Positions 23,353-30,414 of a DNA stretch of 64,000 nt are shown here, piece after piece. The notes under the pieces are model-generated. The model saw only the letters and a list, made by a program, of their open reading frames with translations, searched no databases and was not told the origin of the DNA. Position 1 is the stretch's first letter. Each line of letters starts with the position of its first letter. Both the position numbers and the translations under genes were made by a program. The DNA lies in IMG/VR virus record IMGVR_UViG_3300028549_000507, positions 96,001 to 160,000 of that record; one strand, 5' to 3'. The stretch comes from a virus. Its lineage: Duplodnaviria; Caudoviricetes.

Positions 23353-23393
23353 GAAAATCTCCTTTGATTTCATTAAACATTCATTCGTAATAT

Positions 23394-23408
23394 AATATAT
23401 AATCACAT
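23394..23408 (-). promoter_or_regulatory. Early-type promoter motif
   Basis: Plus strand aatatataatcacat upstream of tubulin. Confidence 0.45.
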
Positions 23409-23452
23409 TACCATTTTGAATTAAAGATAGTGAGGGTAATTCCCTCACCACT

Positions 23453-25083: not shown

Positions 25084-27459
25084 TTATGAGACATCTATCC
25101 CTATGAAATCAAACGCTTTAGACGTAATTTTTCTAGGAGTATTGAGATTTCTCAAGTTTATAGTTTTTAGGCTAGAAGTTCCTGTTTCGGATATAAATAT
25201 TCCCAACTGATCTCGTATTTGTAAATCAACAACCCCGACACCTGTACAAGTGTATCCTTCAAATAAGTATAGTTTCTTTAATTTATTTGTTCTATTCATT
25301 TGTGGGATATCACTGATTTTAATAGTATAAACACAACCACCTACAAGTTTTGAATCTAACAATACTACCAAGTGATTATATTTAATAGGATCAACCAGTG
25401 TCATATGTACGCCAACCCCACTAGAGAATCCACTCTGCACACCACCAGCGGTCTTCCCTTTAACGGGAATGTCGGTTATCTTAATATACTGATACTCACC
25501 TTTTTCATTTGTGAAAAGGATGAACTTATCACTATCTTCTTCTCTTACAAATAAACAATTTTCAATTATAGTATTTGTATTCGATATTCTATTCGTTATA
25601 GTTTCCGATTCGAGTCGTTTAAGTTGACCATCATTCGTTATACAAACAATAGTTCCACTAGAACCATATATAGGACATGCTATTTTTATATGATTATCAG
25701 CTTCTTGAGAAGGTATCCAGCAATTCACAGTCGTAGGGAGTATCGAATTAACACACCCATTCTCATAGAATATCGCTATCGAAGAAATATTTTCATCAAT
25801 TCTATGTGATCCAACGATTTCTTTAACCCATTTGCCATCAATCTTAACACCCTTGAACCCGTTCAGAATCTTCTTACCCGATATAATGTTCGAAGAGTCG
25901 AATATTCCTATACTATTTCTAGTAGAAAGTATTGCTCCATTAGAAATTACGATATCTTCTCTATCCATTAGTCTAGAAAGAACTTTTGTACGTCTAGGTC
26001 TACCGTATTTAGAAATTAATTCATCGAGATCGTTTATAAGAATATCGTCGATTCGGGTTAGATCTGTAGCGTTTGTAATGATACTAACTCTAATCTTTTC
26101 AATATTCTTTGCAAGGTCATCTTTAGATCTCTTTGTAAGTGATCCAAGTTGCATCTCATAAATACCTTTAGCTTGAATAAGCGTAAGATCAAACTTCTTT
26201 TTGAGATTTAAGACAGTTATATCTTTTGAATCGTTCGAAGTTCTAATAAGATCAATAACCTTATCCACATTATCGTATACTTTATAGAGACCGTCTAGGA
26301 TGTGTACTCTATTTTCAAGACTATTTATGACATGAATAATCTTTCTACGACGGTTATCATAGTTTACATCATACCAATCTTTGATAACATCTCGGATTGT
26401 ACAACGTTTAATTTTACCATTAAAGTTAGTTGTAAGTATAAAACTGTTTGATATTTGAAGATTTGTATTTTTATACAAGTTATCAAGTATCTCAACAAGA
26501 TTAACCCCACTCTTACAGTTTACAGCGATATACGGGTTACCATTATTGTTATCCTTACATTCGCCAGCATACAATATTCCACCAGCCATGATTGGATTTT
26601 TAGGATTTCCCTTATCATCTTTATCATTCTGTATAAACTTGATCTTCGAAATTATAGAATCGAAGTCATAAGGTATTGGTAAACTGCGGATAATAATTCT
26701 ATTATTAACATTATCAATCTCAGCATCACCACGAAGCTTAATAGTTGTAGAAAACTCCGCATCATAGTAACATTTCCTGAGGTCGTCGCCGTTTGTGATT
26801 GTACATCCATTTACATAATCCGGGTAAATATTTCTTGATAATTCGTACGATGTAACACTTTTGTTTCGTATATATCGTTTACAAATTTCAGCAATATCAA
26901 TCAAATTATGTTGTGGAACATCCGAAGTAAATGACTCAGCAATACCAAAAGAACCATTGATAAGTAACAATGGAATCTTAGTAGGAACGTACATCGGCTC
27001 ATACTCACCAAAGTCGGCTTCAGATTCGATCATCTCCATAGCATGTTTATCCATAAGAGATACCATTACATCCCAACCGAAATCTGATACTTTGGTTTCA
27101 ATGTATCTTGGAGCTGCTGCCGACATATCAGATATATTACCAAATGATCCCTTAGGATGCAATAGTGCATGATTATTTACAACATTACGAGCAATATTCA
27201 CAATAGAATCTGTAATAGATTTATCGCCATGAGGATGATATGCAGCAACCATACCTCCGAGTTTATTCAACTTAGTATTTGAATAAATCTTATTTTCCCA
27301 ACAAACATACATGATACGGCGTACAACAGGTTTCAGCCCATCAAAACTACTAGGAATCATTCGATCGAATGTAGCTATGCCATACTTGTAGATATCATCT
27401 TTAACACGGTCTACTACCTCTTCTTCATCAGGCATATTCTCAGGGTTCAAGATCATCAT
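25084..27459 (-). CDS. gyrA: Type IIA topoisomerase subunit A (GyrA/ParC-like) with C-terminal pinwheel-like repeats
   Basis: DGLKPVVRRI, YHPHGD, catalytic AAPRYIE, PLLLINGSFGIAESF, blade-like DIPVKGKTAGGV. Confidence 0.92.
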   Translation of the reverse strand: MMILNPENMPDEEEVVDRVKDDIYKYGIATFDRMIPSSFDGLKPVVRRIMYVCWENKIYSNTKLNKLGGMVAAYHPHGDKSITDSIVNIARNVVNNHALLHPKGSFGNISDMSAAAPRYIETKVSDFGWDVMVSLMDKHAMEMIESEADFGEYEPMYVPTKIPLLLINGSFGIAESFTSDVPQHNLIDIAEICKRYIRNKSVTSYELSRNIYPDYVNGCTITNGDDLRKCYYDAEFSTTIKLRGDAEIDNVNNRIIIRSLPIPYDFDSIISKIKFIQNDKDDKGNPKNPIMAGGILYAGECKDNNNGNPYIAVNCKSGVNLVEILDNLYKNTNLQISNSFILTTNFNGKIKRCTIRDVIKDWYDVNYDNRRRKIIHVINSLENRVHILDGLYKVYDNVDKVIDLIRTSNDSKDITVLNLKKKFDLTLIQAKGIYEMQLGSLTKRSKDDLAKNIEKIRVSIITNATDLTRIDDILINDLDELISKYGRPRRTKVLSRLMDREDIVISNGAILSTRNSIGIFDSSNIISGKKILNGFKGVKIDGKWVKEIVGSHRIDENISSIAIFYENGCVNSILPTTVNCWIPSQEADNHIKIACPIYGSSGTIVCITNDGQLKRLESETITNRISNTNTIIENCLFVREEDSDKFILFTNEKGEYQYIKITDIPVKGKTAGGVQSGFSSGVGVHMTLVDPIKYNHLVVLLDSKLVGGCVYTIKISDIPQMNRTNKLKKLYLFEGYTCTGVGVVDLQIRDQLGIFISETGTSSLKTINLRNLNTPRKITSKAFDFIGIDVS

Positions 27460-27487
27460 ATCCTCCGAAATTAAAATTTATACAAAA

Positions 27488-27624
27488 AATTAAAGTGATG
27501 TGTGGGGATTATCCCACACATCACCTTTTTCACTATACCTATCCTAGTATTTTTGGATAGGAGCTAAGATAGATATAATGCAATCTATCGTAGGAATGTT
27601 AAAGGAGCTTAAAATCATACCTAC
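27488..27624 (-). ncRNA. Candidate structured small RNA or attenuator leader upstream of gyrA
   Basis: Promoter +1 at 27624, three hairpins, terminator at 27495-27524. Confidence 0.55.
27495..27524. terminator. Strong intrinsic terminator
   Basis: gtgatgtgtggg / cccacacatcac 12-bp stem with T tracts on both strands. Confidence 0.85.
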
Positions 27625-27635
27625 AATAAATTGTT
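27624..27635 (-). promoter_or_regulatory. AACA-N6-TG promoter
   Basis: AACA atttat TG; predicted +1 G is the first base of hairpin 1. Confidence 0.65.
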
Positions 27636-27651
27636 GAGTATTTAATAAATT

Positions 27652-28221
27652 TTAATATCCAAACATTTCGAGAATCTGTTTATTTAGAATCTCTTCTTCC
27701 CGTTCTTTAGGAAGACCTATCAGATTGATCGCACATGTATCGTATAATTCTTCAGACTTATGCACATAAACTCCGAGGATAATGAAATCTGTAAGATCAC
27801 CGTCGAACATATCAGCATGATATGATCTGGTATAGTATCCGTTTGTACCATGTTCAGCAGGAGCTGCTACAACAGATTGCATAAGTTCTACAAATTTATG
27901 TATAGAACCTTTCCAACCTTTCTTGTAATTATCCTGACCAAATGCGGCAATAATAATTTCAACATCATCAGTAATGTCGATTTCTCCATCATTCATACGC
28001 TTGATAAGGGCATGAAGGGATGGTTCACAATACTTAAGAGAGTCCATAACTTGAAGACTCACAATAACAGTACCAGTTCCATCCTGCTTACCATGTTTAA
28101 TCTTCTTGAGAGACTTACAATATTGTTTAAGTTTTCCAATTCTTACATCTGTTTTATCAGATATAACGCCGAAAACATCATCAAAGAAGTCTACAACAAA
28201 TTCTCTAGTTTCACTAACCAT
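27652..28221 (-). CDS. Hypothetical protein
   Basis: Start reassigned to ATG 28221 (MVSETREF) behind GGAGG. Confidence 0.7.
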   Translation of the reverse strand: MVSETREFVVDFFDDVFGVISDKTDVRIGKLKQYCKSLKKIKHGKQDGTGTVIVSLQVMDSLKYCEPSLHALIKRMNDGEIDITDDVEIIIAAFGQDNYKKGWKGSIHKFVELMQSVVAAPAEHGTNGYYTRSYHADMFDGDLTDFIILGVYVHKSEELYDTCAINLIGLPKEREEEILNKQILEMFGY

Positions 28222-28257
28222 GTGTCCTCCACATTTAAATTTATATAAGATCACTTT

Positions 28258-28273
28258 TATATATATAATCAAA
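28258..28273 (-). promoter_or_regulatory. Early-type promoter motif
   Basis: Plus strand tatatatataatcaaa. Confidence 0.5.
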
Positions 28274-28286
28274 TACCAAGTTTGAA

Positions 28287-30335
28287 TTAATCCGGCTTTA
28301 CACCGATATTTACAACATCAACGATTTCATCAGTATAAATCGAGTACCCAAGTTGTTGCATAAGTGATACAAATGCGTCACTAGGAATACTACTATCGAT
28401 GTCTTCGCTCTTGATATTTACATTATGATATACAAATGGATCTTCCTCAATAAGCATTTTAGCAACACGATCACGATGTTTCATATTAGTTCCACATCCC
28501 GCAAGGAATCTGTTAACTATTTCCGGCGAACATCTATTCATCGCAATATTAACTTCCATCTCTCCAAACTTAATAGGAGTAGTTTTAAGCGGAAGAACTT
28601 TATTCTTAGACACAGATTTATCAGGCAATCCGTACCCATTAACACTACTAATTGATACTGAAGACGATTTACCTTCTGTAGTATGTTTTAGTACCATGAT
28701 ATATTCTTCACCGATAACTACAGCATTCTTAGAAGTATACTTCTTGATACCATGAATAGTATCAATTGTAACCTCAACGCTAGATGGATGAACGTCAAAT
28801 TCCATATAAATCTGCTTCATCTCTTCAAATGTAAGGTTCTTGAAAGAATGCTGTCTCACATATAATCCGCCAGATTCAATAGTTTGAATGAAGCGAGTTC
28901 TATGTTGAGGGGTTGGAAGATTCTTATAGTATTTAACAAGCTCACCATGACTATCGGCATCAACACGACTCATAAATCGACTAAGAAGTTCAAACTTTGA
29001 AGAAAGATTTGGAAGATCTTTCATCTTATCGACTATACGAGTAGATATGAAATTAAGTTCCTGTTCATACATTTGACCAGGATTACTTCGGCCAACAACG
29101 CCACAAGGATTGAAAATGATCTCAGCTCTAACACCATAAGCATCAAGAGGCATCATGTCGTCCGGTATAATCTTGGTAATAACTCCTTTACCACCAAATC
29201 TATTTGTGAGTTTGGAACCCTCAGACAAACACATTTCTTTTGAGATTGTAAATTTAACAAATGCAAATTCAAAAGGATTTTCGGTAGTTTTATTCATATA
29301 TTTGATATTATCATCAGTACACGCGTCATAATGATTTTTATAATAAGTATACTTCGTATTCGCATACGTTGTAACTTTATATGCTTTATCTCGAATATAA
29401 GGTTCGAGGTGTTTGATAATCTTAATCTTATAATCCATAGACAAATTGTAATACATTAACAATTGTTTTCTATGCTCATAATCTTTTAGCAATTCCGCAT
29501 TATTATTTACAACAACATCGATATCAATGATTCTCCCTTTTGCATGGAAGATTTCATCATTAGTATTTGTGATATTATTCAACGAGTTAGAAGTTGTATC
29601 ACAAACAACATTACTAGAATCGATAGTACGCTTTATACAGAATATACCATCAGATACTTCTGTAAAGATGTCGGGAAATCCTTTATAGAAGTCCGGAGTT
29701 CCGTATTTATTGAGGAGAATATCATTGAAATTCAAAACTAATTCAATAGTCTTGATTGATGTATAAGTAACTCGTTTAGCAAACGATTCTGATACAACGA
29801 TACCATCTTCAATATTATCTTTTGTGGAAATATATGCAACATTCCCATTAATACCGTATCTATAGTTAAGATTTTCATCATGACTATGAGTCTTAGATAT
29901 AATTGAACCAGGCTCAATCATCGCCCCAACAGTCTTATAATCAAGATCAACCATAGGTTTAGTATACCCATGTTCTTCTGCGAGATTCTCGTAATGTTTA
30001 TTTTCAATAATATCAATAACACCGGTAATAGTATCTTGAACGATCAGAGTATAATGGTGTCCAGGATTGGAAGGAAACTTATCAATTCGATGTAATATCT
30101 TATATTGAGCTTTGGCTATCCGTAATGAATCGTTAAAACTACCGAATTCTTTTTCAAATCCAGTATATAGTCTAGGAACTTCGGAGTTATTTAGAATCAA
30201 ACTCTGTTCGAAATACGTTCCAACAAGATGCAATCTACTACCAGACGACTTATTATAAAGTGTCATATTATAAATTCCACCAACTTTTTCAGGATCTAAC
30301 GAATCAGATGCCAAAAGTTCTTCTTTAAGCCCCAT
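28287..30335 (-). CDS. RNA polymerase beta subunit, C-terminal half (non-virion; phiKZ gp71-73/AR9 gp089-like)
   Basis: EDGIVVSESF, GSKLTNRFGGKGVI, IIFNPCGVVGRSN, GEEYIMVLKH, PIKFGEME; 682 aa. Confidence 0.92.
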   Translation of the reverse strand: MGLKEELLASDSLDPEKVGGIYNMTLYNKSSGSRLHLVGTYFEQSLILNNSEVPRLYTGFEKEFGSFNDSLRIAKAQYKILHRIDKFPSNPGHHYTLIVQDTITGVIDIIENKHYENLAEEHGYTKPMVDLDYKTVGAMIEPGSIISKTHSHDENLNYRYGINGNVAYISTKDNIEDGIVVSESFAKRVTYTSIKTIELVLNFNDILLNKYGTPDFYKGFPDIFTEVSDGIFCIKRTIDSSNVVCDTTSNSLNNITNTNDEIFHAKGRIIDIDVVVNNNAELLKDYEHRKQLLMYYNLSMDYKIKIIKHLEPYIRDKAYKVTTYANTKYTYYKNHYDACTDDNIKYMNKTTENPFEFAFVKFTISKEMCLSEGSKLTNRFGGKGVITKIIPDDMMPLDAYGVRAEIIFNPCGVVGRSNPGQMYEQELNFISTRIVDKMKDLPNLSSKFELLSRFMSRVDADSHGELVKYYKNLPTPQHRTRFIQTIESGGLYVRQHSFKNLTFEEMKQIYMEFDVHPSSVEVTIDTIHGIKKYTSKNAVVIGEEYIMVLKHTTEGKSSSVSISSVNGYGLPDKSVSKNKVLPLKTTPIKFGEMEVNIAMNRCSPEIVNRFLAGCGTNMKHRDRVAKMLIEEDPFVYHNVNIKSEDIDSSIPSDAFVSLMQQLGYSIYTDEIVDVVNIGVKPD

Positions 30336-30351
30336 TTAACTCTCCCTTTTG

Positions 30352-30392
30352 AAATTATATATTACTCACGTACAATGAGTAATATATAATTT
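30352..30392. repeat. Perfect 17-bp inverted repeat containing the early promoter motif in both orientations
   Basis: aaattatatattactca - cgtacaa - tgagtaatatataattt. Confidence 0.9.
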
Positions 30393-30414
30393 AAATAACT
30401 TTTTAACCCTCACG

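Follow-up and report, generated by a model that had tools for sequence, protein, structure and literature searches.

What does an unusually structured spacer between two genes of an uncultured giant phage encode, and does it serve the gene that follows or act on its own? The spacer lies in a 64,000-nucleotide stretch of DNA, the window of this analysis, which corresponds to bases 96001-160000 of a 200-kb IMG/VR record (IMGVR_UViG_3300028549_000507). It fills 192 nt (27460-27651) between a gene for a 189-aa protein and the gene for a topoisomerase II A subunit ("gyrA", 25084-27459; Pfam PF00521, PHROG 551), and the spacer, its two flanking genes and the polymerase beta gene farther upstream are all on the minus strand. 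The original prediction for this locus had proposed either a stand-alone small RNA (sRNA) or an attenuator of gyrA. The reading that we favour, although we would place it a little below an even chance, is that the spacer encodes a non-coding RNA of about 141 nt that acts in trans, using CUCC(U) loops to block translation initiation, with the messenger of an RNA polymerase beta subunit as its best candidate target. What bears on this reading was computed: transcription signals, a predicted fold, conservation, enrichment and exposure of a loop motif, and co-variation of a loop with the polymerase start region. Giant phages run their own transcription, and many separate transcription from translation inside a protein "nucleus"; to our knowledge their regulatory RNAs have barely been catalogued, and we know of none with a known target.

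The element, promoter included, spans 27635-27484, and begins with the word AACAATTTATTG (27635-27624), of the form AACA-N6-TG. Against a matrix built from 44 other sites of the phage genome this word scores 16.5 bits; those sites have a median of 15.4, and no more than 20 sites in the whole genome do as well. In phage AR9, late promoters conform to AACA-N6-T-A/G and are read by the non-virion RNA polymerase, with the last base of the motif serving as the transcription start (PMC5312081). AACAATTTATTG has the same build: AACA, a 6-nt spacer, T, and then G as the start. Late transcription would by this rule begin at G27624, the very position originally proposed. The same motif recurs throughout the genome at a median of 30 nt from the ATG, while the copy at this locus sits 165 nt before one.

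A listing of all spacers in the genome returned two recurrent promoter motifs, this late one and an A/T-rich word, GTATATATTTAATAGTG, that resembles the AR9 early (virion polymerase) consensus. The A/T-rich class stands 20-93 nt before start codons, for instance in the window spacers 28222-28286, 30336-30414, 23374-23452 and 45901-46039, and in about 20 further spacers; an early-type copy is located upstream of the 189-aa gene, and the one ahead of the polymerase beta gene departs from the consensus. Within the 192-nt spacer there is no second late-type site above 4 bits, and early-type matches peak at -0.1 bits, where real sites score at least 12.6; this agrees with the earlier claim that no other promoter precedes gyrA. 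Nor is there a host-type sigma-70 promoter between the terminator and the gyrA ATG, where matches to the consensus are fewer than in shuffles. Because neither phage promoter class is represented between the terminator (27527) and gyrA (27459), gyrA must be reached by read-through.

Downstream of the promoter, the spacer is predicted to fold far more stably than its composition would suggest. The whole spacer reaches -63.9 kcal/mol, compared with -31.7 +/- 3.7 in dinucleotide shuffles (z = -8.7). In the minimum-energy fold hairpin 1 (27624-27590) begins at the predicted start, where it had been expected, and its 4-nt apical loop is the CUCC at 27607-27604, with a probability of being unpaired of 0.93. 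A linker, GAUAGAUUG (27589-27581), is predicted to be single-stranded in the late transcript and to pair with the promoter region in a longer, read-through transcript. Hairpin 2 (27580-27531) has a 17-bp stem with a pair probability of 0.94 and a 16-nt loop that exposes a further CUCC at 27563-27560. The original prediction had placed two short hairpins here, and these do exist as an alternative fold: two 7-bp hairpins (27589-27568 and 27561-27538; GAUAGAU/AUCUAUC and CCUAUCC/GGAUAGG), the first of which uses the linker as its 5' arm. At -48.9 against -51.6 kcal/mol the two-hairpin version is 2.7 kcal/mol above the version with the single 17-bp hairpin, so that the two are near-isoenergetic and the single hairpin is the one found at the minimum. 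The heptamer AGCUCCU occurs twice, as had been noted (27609-27603, in the apical loop of hairpin 1, and 27565-27559), both times in an exposed loop. A repeated 7-mer is not in itself unusual; the pair is significant because, as set out below, the motif is enriched across relatives.

The element ends in an intrinsic terminator (27527-27484) made of a 15-bp stem (27527-27492, 7 G-C pairs), a 6-nt loop and the U-tract tail AAUUUUUU. It had been described as a 12-bp structure; the terminator is where it was said to be, and the stem is longer. On its own the hairpin is worth -24.3 kcal/mol, at a mean pair probability of 0.98, and a terminator scan of the region returned two sites (one per strand, from the same stem) where 0.3 are expected in shuffles. 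The G+C-rich stem, short loop and U-tract are those of a predicted intrinsic terminator, and AR9 polymerases stop strongly at predicted terminators of this type (PMC5312081). From 27624 to about 27484, the promoter-to-terminator length is 141 nt.

With its own promoter and terminator and no conserved open reading frame (ORF), the locus has the make-up of a stand-alone non-coding unit. The 24-codon ORF pointed out originally (27618-27544) does exist, but its last codons are shifted by a one-base insertion in a relative whose gyrA protein is 97% identical, and it has no counterpart in more distant relatives; a leader peptide was rejected on this ground. An Rfam search, which had been suggested as a check, was run at gathering and at permissive thresholds and matched no family (the best sub-threshold match reached 24.7 bits against a threshold of 56), and a transfer RNA (tRNA) and transfer-messenger RNA scan of the locus returned nothing.

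Conservation was assessed in relatives retrieved as contigs through gyrA homologues of 50-59% identity, which gave 11 further phages, or 12 with the window phage, and in the close relative just mentioned (L003/L004). Between that close relative and the window, the 192-nt spacer differs by one substitution and one A inserted in the hairpin-2 loop (99.5% identical), whereas the three flanking genes have diverged by 8.4-14.8% at third codon positions. Pairing survives the substitution, A27540G, in either fold, since U-A is replaced by U.G. The spacer is, by this comparison, under purifying selection.

Among the more distant relatives it is the design that persists. All of them keep the order polymerase beta gene, gene for a protein of about 200 aa, spacer, gyrA, apart from one with an IS605-type insertion and one with a different upstream block. 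In the former, an IS605-type TnpB/OrfB gene (L012:1362-2567; PF01385, PF07282) separates the polymerase beta gene from the ~200-aa gene. Spacer length ranges from 104 to 406 nt. Hairpins with unpaired CUCC, followed by a terminator and U-tract, occupy this spacer in 8 of the 11 further phages, six of which place a late-type promoter immediately behind the stop codon (in one of them the spacer within the motif is 7 nt); with the window phage included, the RNA body is found at the same position in 9 of 12 phages and the late-type promoter in 7 of those 9. Stems are unrelated in sequence among distant relatives, yet the loop motif is retained. Ten RNA bodies together contain 22 copies of CTCC, where dinucleotide shuffles average 6.6 +/- 2.4 (none of 1000 reached 22), and a single GGAG, a strand bias of 22:1. 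Its density is 12.2 per kb in RNA bodies, compared with 2.2 per kb in the other spacers of the genome and 1.5 per kb in the relatives' other spacers. The motif is also exposed, with a mean probability of being unpaired of 0.82, where random 4-mers drawn from these RNAs average 0.375 (p < 1e-4). Each RNA carries between one and five copies with variable flanks, and the canonical CCUCC core is present in only 5 of the 22. Unpaired C-rich loop motifs are likewise conserved in anti-Shine-Dalgarno sRNAs of the Rsa/RNAIII kind.

Two details of the relatives illustrate how such loci may change. The near-identical contigs L013 (2765-3000) and L017 (2826-3000) differ by a 61-nt block that amounts to one hairpin and part of the next; hairpin modules appear to be gained or lost as units. 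In L042 (2835-2938), the hairpin of the terminator ahead of gyrA contains a late-type promoter word, AACAATTATATA, within its 5' arm. Late transcripts initiated there would lack part of the arm and hence the complete terminator, which early ones could still fold; this may amount to a promoter-dependent bypass of the terminator. Wider searches added little to the sample: a BLAST search of 50,697 phage records with the locus gave no DNA match and only protein matches below 30% identity, a degenerate promoter-plus-hairpin-1 pattern recovered no additional relatives from viral contigs, a scan of viral contigs with a single gyrA protein found none, and an alignment-based gyrA scan of viral contigs added one.

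If the loops do pair with ribosome-binding sites, which messenger might they address? Each of the two loops was compared with the start region (-30 to +15) of every one of the 167 called genes, with a simple duplex model in which the cost of opening hairpin 1 is ignored. By this measure the best partner of loop 1 is the translation start region of the RNA polymerase beta-subunit gene, at -19.7 kcal/mol (rank 1 of 167, z = -4.1; the next reaches -15.4), in a duplex of about 19 pairs over positions -10 to +13 (30323-30345), AUG included. The same site is the best non-self match of loop 1 on both strands of the 200-kb genome. Taken alone, however, this hit is not significant, since in 10-18% of trials a shuffled loop pairs at least as strongly with one start region or another; it was therefore treated as a hypothesis and tested on other phages.

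That test asked how cognate first-loop and polymerase-beta pairs compare with permuted ones in L005, L006, L008, L013/G001 and L041, the other phages for which both RNA and polymerase start could be had. The cognate assignment has the lowest total energy of 120 possible among these five phages, and the lowest of 720 once the window phage is included. In L005, UCUCCCUU pairs with AAGGGAGA at the polymerase beta start; in L006 the corresponding partners are UUCAA(A)CUCCUUU and AAAGGAGUUGAA, and in L013 they are ACCUCCGA and UCGGAGGU. The same test was negative for gyrA (p = 0.85) and marginal for the upstream 189-aa gene (p about 0.06), so that the polymerase signal is not a mere genome-wide flavour of ribosome sites. 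It is this co-variation of loop 1 with the polymerase beta start that makes the beta gene the candidate target.

Several observations weigh against this assignment, or against a general role for the RNA. Besides the frequency with which shuffles equal the best hit, the genome-wide tail of pairing energies is smooth (-18.8, -18.6, -17.7), and the cognate test is built on only six loop/target pairs. In a 181-kb relative the polymerase beta start ranks 8th of 189, behind, among others, a DNA ligase gene and a small unknown gene that pair better. The register of pairing varies, falling on the start codon in the window phage and on the ribosome site in others. Start regions of early- and late-promoter genes show equal pairing energy, and a global shut-off of early genes, which we had considered, is not indicated for want of such a difference. 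At 50-59% gyrA identity, no base-by-base alignment of the relatives' hairpins is possible. Three of the relatives, L009, L010 and L042, lack the RNA body and show just a terminator hairpin in front of gyrA, and a relative at 33% gyrA identity has no spacer; the RNA is hence dispensable in some lineages.

With these reservations, a plausible sequence of events can be sketched. To judge from the motifs, the non-virion RNA polymerase would initiate at the AR9-type late promoter just after the stop codon of the upstream gene, and transcription would stop at the strong intrinsic terminator that the RNA shares with that gene's messenger. The two predicted hairpins would each present an unpaired CUCC(U), which is complementary to the GGAG at the core of ribosome-binding sites, and a loop could then pair in trans with a messenger, around its ribosome-binding site or start codon, to block initiation. 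Were the early messenger of polymerase beta, encoded two genes upstream, the target, the outcome would be late negative feedback on polymerase synthesis. gyrA would be expressed from those transcripts that pass the terminator, whether they began at the late promoter or at the early one ahead of the upstream gene. We infer from the sequences that the transcript exists, that it is late, that its loops pair and that this pairing represses translation.

The RNA could instead be a by-product of gyrA expression. As a cis-acting leader or attenuator, it would be the prematurely terminated 5' leader of gyrA, and the terminator would set the gyrA level, perhaps through a factor that binds the CUCC loops. 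The absence of a promoter of either class between terminator and gyrA fits this account, as does the position directly upstream of gyrA kept in 9 of 12 phages. There is precedent as well: of the 11 sRNAs of giant phage 201phi2-1, 8 come from premature termination in 5' leaders (PMC11512511), and AR9 genes active throughout infection carry early and late promoters (PMC5312081). The details of the locus speak otherwise. A folding-based attenuator needs a competing structure, and the strongest competing pairing of a terminator arm with upstream RNA is worth only -11.4 kcal/mol, against -24.3 for a terminator whose pair probability is 0.98; antiterminator or riboswitch logic was discarded for lack of such a structure, and neither a known aptamer or riboswitch family (Rfam) nor a conserved leader peptide (the small ORF being unconserved) was found. 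The gating of gyrA by the loops that had originally been proposed finds no support: cognate loops pair with the gyrA ribosome site at -9.1 kcal/mol and non-cognate ones at -10.1, the permutation giving the p value quoted above, and the gyrA start region ranks 66th and 114th of 167 for the loops of the window RNA. With no cognate advantage and so poor a rank, loop pairing with the gyrA ribosome site was rejected both in cis and in trans. One relative, L008, has its own late promoter between terminator and gyrA. A second RNA of the same design, described below, stands alone with an early promoter after it. Relatives that lack the RNA body retain a terminator directly before gyrA, which means that this arrangement does not depend on the RNA; the terminator-before-gyrA arrangement appears to be a property of the locus and not of the RNA loops, and the RNA appears to be a unit inserted between the upstream gene and the terminator that is also the 3' untranslated region (UTR) of the upstream messenger. 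Of the two options first put forward, then, the discrete, conserved structured unit of about 140 nt fares well, with a second of the same design to match, and attenuation by folding does not. We regard the leader account as unlikely, but should the RNA be only a leader by-product, the locus would still illustrate how this lineage transcribes an essential replication gene across a terminator.

Other explanations dispense with a messenger target, or seek it next door. The RNA might act as a sponge or decoy directed at a protein or the ribosome, its CUCCU loops resembling the 3' tail of 16S ribosomal RNA (rRNA) and binding a protein or competing for a factor specific to the anti-Shine-Dalgarno sequence. 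Conservation is limited to a core of 4-5 nt in unpaired loops, usually in several copies (1-5) with variable flanks, and no single target stands out in two genomes, both as a decoy would have it; some loops read ACUCCUUUCU or CCUCCUUAUU, which we take to be close to the 16S 3' end. A generic decoy would have no need, however, of flanks that co-vary with one start region, the scarcity of the canonical CCUCC core is awkward for it, and no RNA-binding protein is recognised next door, the 189-aa neighbour having no family or fold match. To us this is a doubtful proposition, somewhat more so than the leader. The element might also belong to the 189-aa gene as part of its 3' UTR, with CUCC folding back on that gene's own ribosome site, or hairpins stabilising its messenger, and the late promoter secondary. 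The stop codon of the 189-aa gene lies 16 nt ahead of the late promoter, and the RNA region consequently doubles as the 3' UTR of that gene, through to the shared terminator, there being no terminator of its own before 27527. In Staphylococcus aureus, the icaR messenger reportedly carries a 3'-UTR anti-Shine-Dalgarno motif that folds onto its own ribosome site. Cognate loops pair with the upstream start at -11.8 versus -10.3 kcal/mol, but the marginal p value noted above falls off to 0.11 when all loops are counted, the upstream-gene start in the window pairs poorly (-9.0 to -9.7 kcal/mol), and the strong late promoter with which the region opens in 6 of 8 further relatives with an RNA body argues for a separate transcript. 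Improbable is the word we would choose here. Finally, the region might have no dedicated function at all, and combine a chance promoter-like word with hairpins left over from cassette shuffling and the terminator of the upstream gene. The wide variation in spacer length and sequence (104-406 nt) and the 61-nt hairpin module by which L013 and L017 differ would be expected of such debris. A spacer 99.5% identical where synonymous sites have diverged by 8-15%, the z of -8.7 for the fold, and a 22:1 CTCC:GGAG bias with loop exposure recurring in independent lineages would not, and we consider this explanation very improbable.

The trans-acting reading draws further support from the layout of the genome as a whole. 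In about 30 other spacers a terminator lies 33-53 nt past the stop codon and a promoter follows it. At the RNA locus this order is reversed, the promoter coming first and the terminator last, with 135 nt of structure between them. The reversed order was flagged in no more than three other spacers. One, at genome 21552-21653, has its early motif match on the upstream stop codon and looks like chance. Another, at genome 67014-67296 (minus strand, outside the window), is a very short unit in which the late promoter AACATATAAGTG is followed by about 45 nt, a small hairpin with a U-run, and then a second late promoter, that of the next gene; it may represent a tiny RNA, or a promoter-proximal pause or terminator.

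The third is the second RNA (locus L056), which lies outside the window at genome 190026-190245 (94026-94245 on the window scale; minus strand) and is about 138 nt long. Here a late promoter directly follows a stop codon, two exposed CUCC motifs (UUUUCCCUCCGUUUA, GCUCUCCUAU) and a strong terminator come next, and then the early promoter of the next gene, so that this RNA stands alone. Its first loop pairs with the ribosome site of a polymerase beta-like gene (genome 83971-86082, PHROG 3015) in a duplex of 13 bp with one bulge, practically level with the best of the 167 start regions. The two RNAs hence agree in promoter type and placement, in length, in their two exposed CUCC motifs and strong terminators, and in having a polymerase-subunit gene among their best matches. 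They differ in that the second is clearly stand-alone and has another neighbour, and their sequences cannot be aligned except in the context of the motif (GCUCUCCUAU versus GCUCCUAU). One may go further and imagine that the two late-promoter RNAs and their counterparts in relatives form a feedback circuit, in which CUCC loops pair with the start regions of polymerase subunits and throttle polymerase synthesis once late transcription is running. This extension we hold to be rather unlikely as matters stand, at roughly the level of the leader account and marginally above it. If true, it would be an RNA-based autoregulation of a viral multisubunit polymerase.

How does the proposed RNA compare with known systems? 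In working principle its closest counterparts appear to be the C-rich-loop sRNAs of Staphylococcus. In S. aureus RsaE, other Rsa RNAs and RNAIII (hairpins 7, 13 and 14), an unpaired UCCC binds the Shine-Dalgarno sequence and prevents formation of the initiation complex (PMC2790875). Like these Firmicutes RNAs, the phage RNA measures about 100-150 nt, with a 5' hairpin, a classical terminator and one to several unpaired C-rich loop motifs complementary to the Shine-Dalgarno sequence (PMC2790875); helices vary while the loop motif stays, and the action proposed is likewise a blocked initiation complex. It differs from the Rsa RNAs and RNAIII in that its motif is CUCC(U) and not UCCC, in being virus-encoded behind a promoter for a phage polymerase, and in being known here from sequence alone. 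As there is no Rfam match at the gathering score, it has no recognisable homology to RsaE/RoxS or any other curated family.

In genomic setting, the closest counterparts seem to be the sRNAs of giant phage 201phi2-1. The study of that phage describes 11 transcript-mapped sRNAs that derive from intergenic regions and 5' UTRs and whose function is not known, and among them sRNA005, like the phiKZ sRNA upstream of gp182, keeps its position across phiKZ-like phages (PMC11512511). The window RNA resembles them in belonging to a giant phage with its own multisubunit polymerases, in having a start and then a terminator within 250 nt upstream of a coding gene, and in a position relative to a homologous gene that is kept across related phages, at the level of sequence and over 141 nt in the present case. 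It is set apart by a topoisomerase neighbour in place of a tail protein, by another phage lineage, by an AR9-like AACA promoter and by its basis in sequence where the others were mapped as transcripts; anti-Shine-Dalgarno loops are not reported for the 201phi2-1 sRNAs in the accessible portion of the study (PMC11512511).

A third comparison concerns timing. Phage T4 achieves late shut-off of early messengers at their ribosome sites with two proteins, the repressor RegA and the GGAG-specific nuclease RegB. The mechanism proposed here, if right, would share with these a phage-encoded repression at GGAG or the start region, but would employ RNA pairing instead of a protein, and it shows no class-wide bias towards early genes. 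We regard the element as a new phage sRNA family within known kinds, of which the polymerase feedback, if real, would be the new part. The locus offers a sequence-defined RNA family across a clade of uncultured phages, with putatively exposed anti-ribosome-site loops and a specific candidate target. Confirmation would imply that giant phages time translation with small RNAs and not only with proteins such as RegA and RegB, and would supply a simple search rule for such RNAs in metagenomic phage sequences: CUCC loops flanked by a terminator downstream and, upstream, by a late promoter that directly follows a stop codon.

The neighbouring genes complete the picture. The phage genome has a G+C content of 33% and a coding density of about 94%, and its genes include multisubunit RNA polymerase subunits and tubulin in addition to the topoisomerase II A subunit. 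The polymerase beta-subunit gene proposed as the target (28287-30335; PHROG 3295, E = 1.6e-113) lies two genes upstream of gyrA. Between them, the conserved gene for the 189-aa protein (27652-28221) is syntenic in all relatives, and its product, by protein alignment, is conserved throughout the clade, always adjoining the RNA locus. The predicted alpha/beta model of this protein is confident (predicted local distance difference test 88, predicted template modelling score 0.85), but no fold can be assigned to it: no Pfam or PHROG family matches the protein, Foldseek returns no match at E <= 0.001, and the best VIA-align Z is 4.5, not a convincing solved fold. The protein appears to be clade-specific.

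Downstream, the gyrA start spacer (27456-27483) contains the ribosome site GGAGG (27466-27462) and two potential start codons, at 27459 and 27456. This site lies 26 nt past the terminator stem, a small correction to the 30 nt stated originally, and the gyrA start is 36 nt beyond the terminator. From GGAGG to the first ATG (27459) there are 2 nt, and to the second (27456) 5 nt; the better spacing of the second, together with a 790-aa call in the 97% relative, makes it the likelier start of gyrA. Elsewhere in the genome and outside the window, the spacers at 187293-187446 and 188134-188363 carry tRNA-like sequences, such as ...GGGGAAGTAACTCAGTTGG...

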